Origin: a virus
Direction: 5' to 3' (one strand)
Virus genome (UHGV): UHGV-0057186
DNA length: 64,000 nucleotides
The notes under the pieces were generated by a model that was not told the DNA's origin, did not search any database, and worked only from the letters and a program-made list of their open reading frames with translations. Below are positions 26,076 through 29,762 of the stretch, in pieces (positions within the stretch are counted from its first letter, which is position 1; every line of letters begins with the position of its first letter). A program made the translations under genes and the position numbers.

Positions 26076-27316
<1,241 letters not shown>

Positions 27317-27320
<4 letters not shown>

Positions 27321-27805
27321 TTTAATTTCCTGCATTCAGTGATAAAGCTATTTAAATTTTGAGCATATTTCTTTTCATCATAAATCTTTTGCTGTCTGCG
27401 TAAACGCCATGGCATTTCAATGAACACGCACCATATTCCTGATAGTACTGCTGCTGTAAAAATATTAACAAGTATAATTAAAAGAATCCAATCTTCCGTT
27501 CTGCCTACTGGACTTTCTCCAAAGAAGCAAAATACAAATGATGTCACAGGAAAACTAATAATATACCACAGAATAACCTTCTTATCTGTGAACCAATCAG
27601 CGTTCGTTAACTTAGCACGACCATTTTGAATACACACGAATTTATCATCTGTTACAGTAGATGGCTTAACTGCTTGATATCCCATTCTAAACTCCCTAAT
27701 TAATCGTTTCTTTGTATCTTCAGAACAGCCGCTCCAGTCAACTCTATCGACTGAAATGCCATCGTCCCCATCATCTAAATCATACCAGCGAGTTTTTAAA
27801 ATCAT
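27317..27805 (-). CDS. membrane protein, e.x junction family
   Basis: two TM helices; C-terminal FITECRKLK tail; ATGA coupling to nudE. Confidence 0.55.
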
Positions 27806-28176
27806 TTGATTTTCCTGCAATCACTCACAAACTCTTTCATTGATTCATTTTCAATATAAGATATGTAGTTATTATATTCTTTTAATTGTATTTTGTAATC
27901 CTTTTTTCTTTGCCAATTTATTTTAAAATTATCATAATGAAAATATAAAATAATACCAAAGAATGAAAATAATGAAATTGCTATAGTATAATGAAGTTCA
28001 CTCCAAACTTCTATTATATCTACTATACCGCTGACGTTACTGCGGATGTTTAAAATAAAACAGTCAATTAACAATCCAATAAGACTACCCGCAAGAGCTG
28101 CAGCCAATGCCACAGCAAAAATTAAAAATGACTCAGAAAAAGAATATTTGACTTTATTTAGTTTTGGCTTTTGCAT
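27802..28176 (-). CDS. membrane protein, e.x junction family
   Basis: TM helices; C-terminal FVSDCRKIK; AAGGAA SD. Confidence 0.55.
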   Translation of the reverse strand: MQKPKLNKVKYSFSESFLIFAVALAAALAGSLIGLLIDCFILNIRSNVSGIVDIIEVWSELHYTIAISLFSFFGIILYFHYDNFKINWQRKKDYKIQLKEYNNYISYIENESMKEFVSDCRKIK

Positions 28177-28550
28177 CGTGATTCCTTAACAAATTTCATA
28201 ATTTCATTAAATTCATACATATCTAGTTTAAGCTGATGTTCCTTTTTAATCTTTTTACACTGAGCTTTCCATTCACGTACGCGTTTACGATAATGTCTTC
28301 CTTGATACCAGTATCCTACCCAATTTATAGGTACTAATAAAAATGGAACTACAAATGGAAGAATTAATACTAACAGAAATATTACGTCAGATTCAATATC
28401 AGTCATAAAGTCTATAACCATTCCAACAATCAATAGAATTACAAATGATATAGCTGTCACAGGACCTATTAATATATCAGTAGGAATTAGCTGGCGCTTT
28501 AATTCATACTTCACAGGTTTACTTGGAAGATACATTGATGGCTTTGACAT
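28158..28550 (-). CDS. membrane protein, e.x junction family
   Basis: TM helices; C-terminal FVKESRCKSQN; start MSKPSMY. Confidence 0.5.
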   Translation of the reverse strand: MSKPSMYLPSKPVKYELKRQLIPTDILIGPVTAISFVILLIVGMVIDFMTDIESDVIFLLVLILPFVVPFLLVPINWVGYWYQGRHYRKRVREWKAQCKKIKKEHQLKLDMYEFNEIMKFVKESRCKSQN

Positions 28551-29127
28551 ATTCTCTACATTCCTTAACAAATTTTTCTAGTAATAAATCGCTTTCAAAA
28601 CTAGGATTTTCCACGAATTTATCAAAAAGATCATCAACAATAGTTAAGATATTCTTTTTACTAAGAATACGCTTATTTTCATATTTTGTTTCAGAGTCAA
28701 CTATAAGAGTAAAGAAATATTTCTTTCCCTGAAATTTTACCGTAGTATCAATATAAAATAAATTTGACTTTTGTAAATTACGTTTAAACCATGCGTCACT
28801 TAAACTATAAACGCCAAGATAATCAAAATCGTCGTTTAAATAACATACTGTCCATTCAGGAGAAATGAAATCAGTAAATTCAACATCAAAATCACACGTC
28901 AATGAATGAATTGATTCAATACTGTTAATGAGTATTCCAGGACGTATTAAAGACTTTTTACCTCTAGAAAATCTTCCGGAAAGGCTTTCATCAGTTTCAT
29001 ATGAAGACCCCCAATAGTAATTACGTCCTTCTGCCATGCGTTTAAGAGCATTTAGTAATTGGTCTGGAACATCAACCTGTCTTTGGAACTCTTCAAACAT
29101 TGAATTGAAATCACTTTGCATTTTCAT
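28519..29127 (-). CDS. hypothetical protein (202 aa)
   Basis: soluble N-terminal part; C-terminal FVKECREYVK junction motif. Confidence 0.55.
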   Translation of the reverse strand: MKMQSDFNSMFEEFQRQVDVPDQLLNALKRMAEGRNYYWGSSYETDESLSGRFSRGKKSLIRPGILINSIESIHSLTCDFDVEFTDFISPEWTVCYLNDDFDYLGVYSLSDAWFKRNLQKSNLFYIDTTVKFQGKKYFFTLIVDSETKYENKRILSKKNILTIVDDLFDKFVENPSFESDLLLEKFVKECREYVKAINVSSK

Positions 29128-29145
29128 TCCTATTTACTCCAAGTA

Positions 29146-29165
29146 TAAGGGGCCGAAGCCCCTTA
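29146..29165 (-). terminator. stable GC hairpin (possible terminator or RNA end-protection)
   Basis: TAAGGGGC-CGAA-GCCCCTTA, no clear U-run. Confidence 0.3.
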
Positions 29166-29168
29166 TCA

Positions 29169-29762
29169 TTATTTCAGAGAATTAATGTATTCCTGAACAT
29201 CGGCAGAGGTAGTTTCAACCCCAGAAATATTACCGTTAAAGGTTTCAACTCGAGCAAGGGTATCTTCAATATCAACCTTAGTCAGTGCTGCAATTTCAAC
29301 TACATCATCAGCAGTACTAATTCCAAGGGCATTTGCTGCACGAGTTTCACGGATATATTCCAATTTAACCGCAAGTTCTTGACGAGCATCATCTAACTCA
29401 ACTACTTTCTTGGCGATTTCAATTCGCATTTCAGCATAACCGTCAGCCTTAGTAGTCAACTGCTCAGCTGTTCGACGATATAGTAAACCGAGTTTAGCAT
29501 GCATTGTTACATCTTGGCCTTCGGAAAGAAGTTTACGAATTTCACGCTCTTTTGATTCGGCCTGTCGATTCTTTTCGATAACAAGTTCACGAATACGTTT
29601 TTCTTCGTTAATAGATTTAACAGAAGCAGTTTTTAGATCTTTAATTTTATCAAGTAGTTTTGCTGCTGCAGCAGTATACTGTTCTTCGACAGATAGATTT
29701 TTAGCCATAGCAGAACCAAGTTTAGTGCGAATAAACTCAACAATTTTCTTCAGTGTGTTCAT
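29169..29762 (-). CDS. coiled-coil protein (197 aa)
   Basis: long predicted helices; composition reminiscent of PspA-like proteins but unverified. Confidence 0.55.

Follow-up and report, generated by a model that had tools for sequence, protein, structure and literature searches.

Why do four consecutive genes of a virus end in closely similar short sequences that also provide the ribosome-binding site for the gene that follows? The question is raised by a 64,000-nucleotide (nt) stretch of the virus genome UHGV-0057186 (the window, meaning the whole stretch that was analyzed), in which genes e.5, e.4, e.3 and e.2 lie on the minus strand within the e–nudE–e.2–e.3–e.4–e.5–e.6 block of Tequatrovirus (T4-like coliphage), a block matched by 519 phage records at 80–99% identity. 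A preliminary description of the window had proposed that the four genes share one junction module of about 25 nt, at which divergent gene bodies were inserted or replaced as cassettes by recombination. After comparison with related phages, we consider it probable that these genes form a small family in tandem, that the C-terminal tail of its members is conserved and cytoplasmic, and that the tail codons also serve as the ribosome-binding site of the following gene.

Four related gene ends

The four coding sequences, with membrane topologies as predicted, and their tail motifs are as follows, in gene order.

28519..29127, minus strand: e.5 coding sequence, 202 amino acids (aa), soluble, without a transmembrane (TM) segment; PHROG 2607; tail LLLEKFVKECRE followed by YVKAINVSSK
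28158..28550, minus strand: e.4 coding sequence, 130 aa; PHROG 2604; N-in, TM1 at about 28-46, acidic loop, TM2 at about 57-75, 55-aa basic cytoplasmic tail, ending FVKESRC-KSQN
27802..28176, minus strand: e.3 coding sequence, 124 aa; PHROG 2330; N-in, TM1 19-37, acidic loop, TM2 61-79, 45-aa cytoplasmic tail, ending FVSDCRK-IK
27317..27805, minus strand: e.2 coding sequence, 162 aa; 76-aa soluble N-terminal part, two TM helices, cytoplasmic tail, ending FITECRK-LK
28572..28552, minus strand: e.5 tail motif FVKECRE, TTTGTTAAGGAATGTAGAGAA; AAGGAA at 28566..28561, 10 nt before the e.4 ATG at 28550
28193..28173, minus strand: e.4 tail motif FVKESRC, TTTGTTAAGGAATCACGATGC; AAGGAA at 28187..28182, 5 nt before the e.3 ATG at 28176
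27831..27811, minus strand: e.3 tail motif FVSDCRK, TTTGTGAGTGATTGCAGGAAA; AGGAAA at 27816..27811, 5 nt upstream of the e.2 ATG (27805); ATGA stop-start overlap
27346..27326, minus strand: e.2 tail motif FITECRK, TTTATCACTGAATGCAGGAAA; AGGAAA at 27331..27326, 5 nt upstream of the nudE ATG (27320); ATGA stop-start overlap

The strings and peptides first reported for these gene ends are correct and occupy exact positions on the minus strand; the motif is followed by 10 further codons in e.5 and by four in e.4. A degenerate consensus derived from the four tails, TTTRTBAVKGAWTSHMGR, matched the window four times, exactly at these tails, compared to 0.03 matches expected from shuffled sequence. Translated in all six frames, the window contains the peptide F[VI]x[DE][CS]R at five places (0.35 expected from shuffles), four of which are the e.2–e.5 tails, each 3–11 residues from the stop. 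The fifth, FINDSR near position 1207, is internal to a thioredoxin/glutaredoxin-like open reading frame (ORF), 23 residues before its end, and was set aside as a chance match. The likeness of the four tails beyond chance is thus confirmed, and the observation is real.

We then compared gene tails in pairs, using about 101 approximate gene calls in the window to obtain 5044 background pairs. The e.5 and e.4 tails are identical at 18 of 21 bases, including a 16-base identity (AAATTTGTTAAGGAAT), and the e.3 and e.2 tails at 17 of 21, including the 9-nt TGCAGGAAA; DNA similarity in both pairs equals or exceeds the maximum among the background pairs. Cross pairs share 14 of 21 bases, a level reached by 23% of background pairs. 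Peptide-level scores link e.2, e.3 and e.5 at 27–31 (background 99.9th percentile, 26) and e.4 to e.5 at 29. At the DNA level there are therefore two adjacent pairs and not a single four-fold module: the claim of one ~25-nt unit in four genes stands insofar as four matches far exceed chance, and falls where it implies that all four are alike in DNA.

Each motif contains two adjacent codons that match a Shine-Dalgarno sequence, namely K-E as AAG GAA, E-E as GAG GAA or R-K as AGG AAA, within the upstream ORF. At the e.5, e.4, e.3 and e.2 junctions, the spacer between AAGGAA or AGGAAA and the next ATG measures 10, 5, 5 and 5 nt, so that the sites are present as described although closer in three cases than the 6–10 nt initially given. 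Independent annotation of phages 107 and Ac3 also places ribosome-binding sites here. In Tequatrovirus e.2 and e.3, K-E is replaced by T-E or S-D, two extra codons follow the motif, and the arginine codon is AGG, which creates AGGAAA. This use of AGG where the K-E or E-E codons have been replaced argues that peptide and Shine-Dalgarno constraints act on the same bases. The genes overlap by 32 nt (e.5/e.4), 19 nt (e.4/e.3) and 4 nt (e.3/e.2 and e.2/nudE), and the ATGA stop-start overlaps proposed for all junctions occur at the last two of these only. Because the genes are packed so tightly, with overlapping stops and starts, two adjacent tail codons serve as the Shine-Dalgarno sequence of the next gene, and the “25-nt junction module” is most simply read as a place where three constraints coincide, on the peptide, on the ribosome-binding site and on the stop/start. 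Translationally coupled overlapping genes likewise carry a Shine-Dalgarno sequence in the last codons of the upstream gene together with a stop/start overlap (here 4, 19 and 32 nt), and translation from e.5 to nudE may be coupled in this manner. What sets this locus apart from ordinary coupled genes is that one peptide-coding motif supplies the Shine-Dalgarno sequence four times consecutively.

Conservation of the tail peptide and probable relatedness of the genes

To separate conservation of the peptide from conservation of the DNA, we considered orthologues from Mosigvirus, Gaprivervirus and Dhakavirus, each represented by one or two genomes. The tail consensus, hydrophobic-x-x-F-[VI]-x-[ED]-[CS]-R-x, is retained in orthologues with only 20–55% overall identity: Mosigvirus APCEc01 has QFIMECRE in e.5, EFVKEIRC in e.4 and NFIKECRK in e.3, and Mosigvirus BEU50 has RFITECRN in e.2; Gaprivervirus RZ has RFIAECRE, EFIKEVRN, TFIKECKS and SFIEECRK in e.5, e.4, e.3 and e.2, respectively; and the e.2 tails of Dhakavirus WG01 and MX01 read NSFIKECRK and NEFIEECRK. 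Across genera, the codons vary, with arginine encoded by AGG, AGA, CGA, CGC or CGT and cysteine by TGT or TGC. Within Tequatrovirus, the e.4 tail of Ac3 (TTC GTA AAA GAG AGC CGC TGC) is synonymously changed at six of seven codons while FVKESRC remains unchanged. Ranked among all 10-residue windows of each family, the tail falls in the top 0.7% for e.2, about 5% for e.5 and 12–14% for e.3 and e.4; no stretch of e.2 is better conserved and few of e.5 are, and in e.3 and e.4 the tail stands above average. Tails kept in such divergent orthologues with differing codons argue for selection on the peptide, and it is the orthologues from other genera that decide for a common element that appears to be mainly a conserved peptide and not a DNA linker.

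When a profile of the tail was searched against 1.84 billion representative proteins, it returned only the e.2–e.5 families, two variants produced by deletion or hybrid formation, and two proteins with repeats that we rejected as spurious, one a eukaryotic GTPase-like repeat and the other apparently a translated DNA repeat. No wider domain containing the tail was found among these representatives, and at the sensitivity of this search the module seems to be restricted to this group of phages. When e.3, the tail alignment and e.5 were used to look for homologues, only close relatives or fragments came back, and the corresponding profiles are shallow.

Hydropathy and charge predict a single plan for e.2, e.3 and e.4, in which the N-terminus is basic, a short acidic loop separates TM1 from TM2, and a basic tail of 29–55 residues follows. 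Under the positive-inside rule, these are predicted to be N-in/C-in two-helix membrane proteins with cytoplasmic tails after TM2, in agreement with the earlier suggestion that three of the genes encode such proteins. A further Mosigvirus protein of 101 aa (L006:5778-6083, APCEc01) also has two TM helices and a basic tail, and ends in NFIKECRGK. The helical hydrophobic moment of the tails is 0.33–0.47 and one helical face bears the conserved L/M/I, F, V/I and C; AlphaFold2 (AF2) models show the tails as helices (e.5 helix 181-197; e.4 TM1 24-49 and a long helix 55-129). A fold search of BFVD with the e.5 model found only uncharacterized T4-like proteins.

The bodies of the membrane-protein genes had been described as unrelated-looking, a view that comparison of e.4 and e.3 makes less likely. 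These align by hhalign with 87% probability (E = 4e-6) over the whole 43-column tail, and RZ e.4 matches RZ e.3 by BLASTP with E = 5e-6 over 84 collinear residues. The two proteins also have a common N-terminus, M-x-K/R-P, so that their repeat unit covers the tail, Shine-Dalgarno sequence, ATG and first codons. Together these comparisons make it probable that e.3 and e.4 are diverged, full-length paralogues. The e.3 and e.2 profiles align with 83% probability over 19 columns, a match limited to the tail (16–19 columns). As in other tandem paralogue arrays, e.2, e.3 and e.4 are adjacent genes on one strand with a common architecture; unlike typical ones, they have diverged beyond recognition over most of their length, leaving homology in the tail and, for e.3 and e.4, the N-terminus. 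Two further proteins, observed in passing, are P0072 (69 aa), apparently an e.4 that has lost its two TM helices by in-frame deletion, and P0049 (60 aa, phage OLB35), which resembles a scrambled chimera of e.3 and e.4.

The only matches of the e.x proteins are to PHROG families of unknown function (2203, 2330, 2604 and 2607), to members of which the window proteins are near-identical, and close relatives of e.2, e.4 and e.5 (mostly at least 80% identical, some being fragments or Mosigvirus orthologues) carry precomputed assignments to PF26896, PF26873 and PF26876, respectively. These Pfam and PHROG entries are separate families of unknown function, and literature searches on the e.x genes found no description of a tail common to them. 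A role in superinfection exclusion or lysis timing, raised earlier for the membrane proteins, gained no backing, since Pfam and PHROG scans gave only the e.x families and no match to the Imm, Sp, T, RI or RIII families. In several public records, e.3, e.4, e.5 and e.6 are named “sulfurtransferase”, “DNA primase”, “site-specific RNA endonuclease”, “glutaredoxin” or “host specificity protein”, with names that conflict between records. None was backed by Pfam scans of the window proteins, and they look like annotation-transfer errors.

A different account of the likeness is that the tails are kept alike by gene conversion between neighbors or by co-evolution with one partner, a process that would be compatible with a tandem family but that we regard as unlikely to be the principal cause. 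It would fit the location of the longest identical DNA in adjacent pairs (16 nt in e.5/e.4, 9 nt in e.3/e.2), the uniform codon choice of Gaprivervirus, where each of the four tails uses ATT and each of the three with an arginine uses CGT, and the F-V of Tequatrovirus e.5, e.4 and e.3 compared to F-I in most other genera, as well as TCCTGTGACA...TCATTTGTA, which e.4 and e.2 share in some Tequatrovirus alleles only. However, the sample of other genera is small, and codon bias and common ancestry could generate the same pattern.

Gene loss, gain and hybrids at the repeats

Tandem paralogue arrays change by unequal crossing-over, and T4 deletions occur between short direct repeats. The changes of gene content in this block have breakpoints in short identities of this kind, which in the window are located as follows.

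27819..27811, minus strand: left copy of the crossover repeat TGCAGGAAA, in the e.3 tail, from comparison with e.2-less junctions
27334..27326, minus strand: right copy of TGCAGGAAA, in the e.2 tail, from the same comparison
28455..28464, minus strand: left copy of TCCTGTGACA, codons P-V-T at the start of e.4 TM1, a second microhomology, used in the UFV11 hybrid
27542..27551, minus strand: right copy of TCCTGTGACA, P-V-T at the start of e.2 TM1, the same microhomology

In UFV-AREG1, JE01, T2, RB32, RB33, PP01, PST and other phages, e.2 is absent and e.3 leads directly into nudE. The junction reads ...GATTGCAGGAAA joined to TTAAAATG, an exact in-frame loss of e.2 with the crossover within TGCAGGAAA, and at least 46 of the 60 best records contain it without a break. 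Matches by tblastn at 60% identity or more number 503 for e.5, 504 for e.4, 499 for e.3 and 448 for e.2, indicating that about 10% of Tequatrovirus records are without e.2. The e.2-less phages are mutual nearest neighbors in e.3, where they have a single allele in common, and are not so in e.4 or nudE. We therefore rejected recurrent deletion; the simplest reading is that one old deletion was spread by flanking recombination. Compared to T6 and the window, e.2 of the T4 reference (NC_000866) has a −1 frameshift that is followed some 85 nt further on by a +1 frameshift, leaving a 102-aa product, so that e.2 is intact in T6, frameshifted in the T4 reference and absent in T2.

UFV11 has, between e.5 and nudE, a single 106-aa e.4::e.2 hybrid composed of e.4 residues 1–32 and the TM/tail part of e.2, with the crossover in TCCTGTGACA, and this hybrid is a cluster representative in a large protein library. 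The 10-mer TCCTGTGACA has only two occurrences in the window; in some Tequatrovirus alleles only, e.4 and e.2 have it followed by TCATTTGTA at the start of TM1, giving identities of 10 and 9 nt. Dhakavirus MX01 lacks e.4, with e.5 overlapping the e.3 start at AAAGAGGTTCAAAATG, while in Gaprivervirus RZ e.4 is located between two similar junctions, AAAGGGGTTCAAAATG and AAGGAGGTTCGTAATG. Like other tandem paralogue arrays, the block thus contains in-frame hybrids and exact losses with breakpoints in 9–16-nt identities, and comparison of these genomes shows short direct repeats at the sites of in-frame unequal recombination leading to gene loss, gain and hybrids. A fusion in BEU50 (L008:4980-5483, record UNVERIFIED_ORG) combines, in one reading frame, about 105 N-terminal residues of e.5 with about 60 C-terminal residues of an unrelated 228-aa gene whose usual place is ahead of e.2; e.4, e.3 and about 3 kb are deleted. 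It could be real or an assembly artefact, and would indicate that in-frame fusions arise in the block without tail repeats too.

Nucleotide diversity was assessed in 17 Tequatrovirus sequences; an IMG/VR scan with e.3 yielded four loci, and BYEP02 (L003, OR757454) was left out because two ~80-nt tandem duplications, in e.3 and nudE, break its ORFs and are probably an assembly artefact. Gene bodies have diversities of 0.126 (e.4), 0.073 (e.3) and 0.077 (e.2), compared to 0.033–0.035 for three of the junctions, and are thus 2–4 times more diverse than these. The expectation of variable bodies between conserved junctions therefore holds at three of four junctions and breaks down at e.3/e.2, where diversity is 0.074. 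The most variable stretch of the block is the e.4 TM region (28197..28518), with diversity up to 0.24 compared to about 0.04 in e.5, e.6 and nudE.

These boundaries invite comparison with the promoter-early stem-loop (PeSL) cassettes of T4-type phages, elements located between genes that combine a sigma-70 promoter with a G/C stem-loop terminator (Arbiol et al., 2010, PMC2839356; Comeau et al., 2014, PMC4122927). Like PeSLs, the e.2–e.5 repeats are short boundary repeats in a plastic, non-essential T4-like region, end in a Shine-Dalgarno sequence and start codon, and can add or remove whole genes by recombination, since the e.2 and e.4 indel boundaries coincide with repeats. Unlike PeSLs, they lie inside coding sequence, encode a conserved peptide and belong to genes that overlap by 4–32 nt. 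They also have neither a stem-loop nor a promoter-like site over the motif. No G/C stem-loop was found in any of the four 81-nt junction RNAs, three of which fold less well than shuffles (z +1.2 to +1.6); the e.3/e.2 RNA folds somewhat better (z −1.95), again without a G/C stem. No promoter-like site overlaps a tail motif, the nearest being 30–40 nt upstream in e.2 and e.3 only, and the 26 such sites in the region are not clearly enriched over shuffles (17.8 ± 4.1).

That the ~25-nt junction is kept at the DNA level, as a portable recombination site for unrelated cassettes resembling a PeSL without its promoter, consequently seems improbable to us. The exact in-frame loss of e.2 at TGCAGGAAA, the gain or loss of e.4 exactly between junction repeats in Gaprivervirus versus Dhakavirus, and the low diversity of three junctions (0.07–0.13 for the membrane-gene bodies) are what such a linker would produce, and recombination at short repeats is the part of the original proposal that we retain. 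However, the peptide is kept while the DNA is recoded (Ac3; five arginine codons), non-adjacent junctions are no closer in DNA than random gene tails, the gene bodies have a common architecture and detectable homology, and the e.2-less phages appear to trace to one event. The lack of a stem-loop in the junctions and of promoter-like sites over the motifs also counts against it, as does a 3-kb block that parts e.3 from e.2 in other genera without a tail repeat at its right edge. We found no unrelated gene or replacement cassette between two junctions, and preservation of the peptide under recoding is not expected of a neutral linker.

Convergence, in which purine-rich in-frame Shine-Dalgarno sequences and AT-rich codon bias alone produce the likeness without ancestry or peptide function, we judge very improbable: AAGGAA or AGGAAA does lie 5–10 nt from every start, and cross pairs of tails are at DNA background, but the Shine-Dalgarno sequence covers only two of seven or more conserved residues (leaving F, V/I, C, R and the hydrophobic residue at −3 unexplained), the peptide persists when that sequence shifts from K-E to R-K codons, tail peptide scores exceed 99.9% of background tail pairs, the motif stands at no other gene end in the window, and the profile search recovered only these families.

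The proposed tail family and its surroundings

The explanation we favor is therefore a tandem family whose coding tail is also a translation signal. Genes e.2–e.5 and at least one further protein, the 101-aa two-helix protein of Mosigvirus, would have a homologous C-terminal tail, predicted to form a short amphipathic helix whose terminal motif is hydrophobic-x-x-F-[VI]-x-[ED]-[CS]-R-[KEC]. The family most likely originated by tandem duplication. For e.2 and e.5, which appear to have only the tail in common with it, the tail may have been acquired by in-frame fusion like that in present-day natural hybrids. The Shine-Dalgarno sequence in the tail codons would feed the next gene, with the rare AGG arginine codon supplying the site where K-E has been lost, and the resulting short direct repeats have, on a few occasions, let unequal recombination remove or add whole genes and create hybrids.

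Several observations weigh against this explanation. Homology outside the tail is weak: the e.4/e.3 probability falls to 36% with larger, Tequatrovirus-heavy alignments, e.5 matches the other e.x profiles over only 10–17 columns at 14–26% probability, and hhalign gave no match between e.4 and e.2 or between e.4 and e.5. The AF2 models of e.5 and e.4 are low-confidence, with a predicted local distance difference test (pLDDT) score of 61 for e.5 and 64 for e.4. Translational coupling rests on sequence, and the 10-nt spacing at e.5/e.4 is long for a Shine-Dalgarno sequence. The e.2 deletion is tied to one e.3 allele, which fits a single event, and the repeats need not recombine often. Finally, the docking of the tail considered below is speculation.

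The genes and elements that flank e.2–e.5 in the window, and a related arrangement in other genera, are these.

26354..26842, minus strand: e, lysozyme, from the gene call
26880..27320, minus strand: nudE (e.1), a Nudix hydrolase (Pfam NUDIX, 1.1e-13), the last gene served by the chain of overlapping junctions
29169..29762, minus strand: e.6, from the gene call
29145..29166, minus strand: GGGGC-UUCG-GCCCC tetraloop hairpin between e.6 and e.5, at the upstream edge of the packed e.5-to-nudE block
L006:3357-4151 (Mosigvirus APCEc01), L007:6691-7712 (Gaprivervirus RZ) and L023 (Dhakavirus MX01): array of genes ending G-x-W-V-x-S-S-x-x-C

The hairpin has no T-run after it in the gene direction; a role in RNA stability or processing is more likely than one in termination. 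The lysozyme is 162 aa long and ends ...TGTWKAYI, compared to ...TGTWDAYKNL in T4; the lysozyme of Mosigvirus BEU50 has the ending found in the window. Downstream of it, a 98-aa ORF (26076..26372, minus strand) has a near-identical copy in BEU50, which suggests that lysozyme and ORF form a mosaic segment common to different genera. In Mosigvirus, Gaprivervirus and Dhakavirus, the ~3-kb block between e.3 and e.2 holds seven to nine genes and starts exactly after the e.3 tail; in the genomes compared, the tail repeat is absent from its right edge. Right after e.3 stand three or four consecutive small genes ending G-x-W-V-x-S-S-x-x-C, most then followed by TAAGGAA, which appear to be a second tandem array with a common C-terminal tail adjoining a ribosome-binding site.

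As to what the tail does, we can only speculate that it docks early proteins on one common cytoplasmic partner or on each other. A possible though doubtful version is that L-x-x-F-[VI]-x-E-C-R-K acts as a docking peptide joining four or five otherwise different early T-even proteins, namely e.5 (soluble) and three or four small proteins of the inner membrane, to one host or phage partner, or into a membrane complex, in which case coupled translation would set their stoichiometry. Cleavage by the prohead protease, suggested by the resemblance of [VI]-x-E to the T4 cleavage consensus, was dropped because the e.x products are early membrane proteins.

The novelty of the family is modest, in that a previously undescribed feature emerges from the ordinary mechanisms of duplication, translational coupling and short-repeat recombination. 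It nonetheless offers a worked example of a peptide motif, a ribosome-binding site and a stop/start overlap within the same 20–25 bases, and its short repeats would explain natural differences in gene content among T2, T4, T6 and related genera. A common cytoplasmic tail would also reduce four orphan e.x genes to one question about a shared partner or complex. If docking is true, the tail would represent a new small-protein module in the best-studied phage, and a handle on genes that have been without a function for decades.

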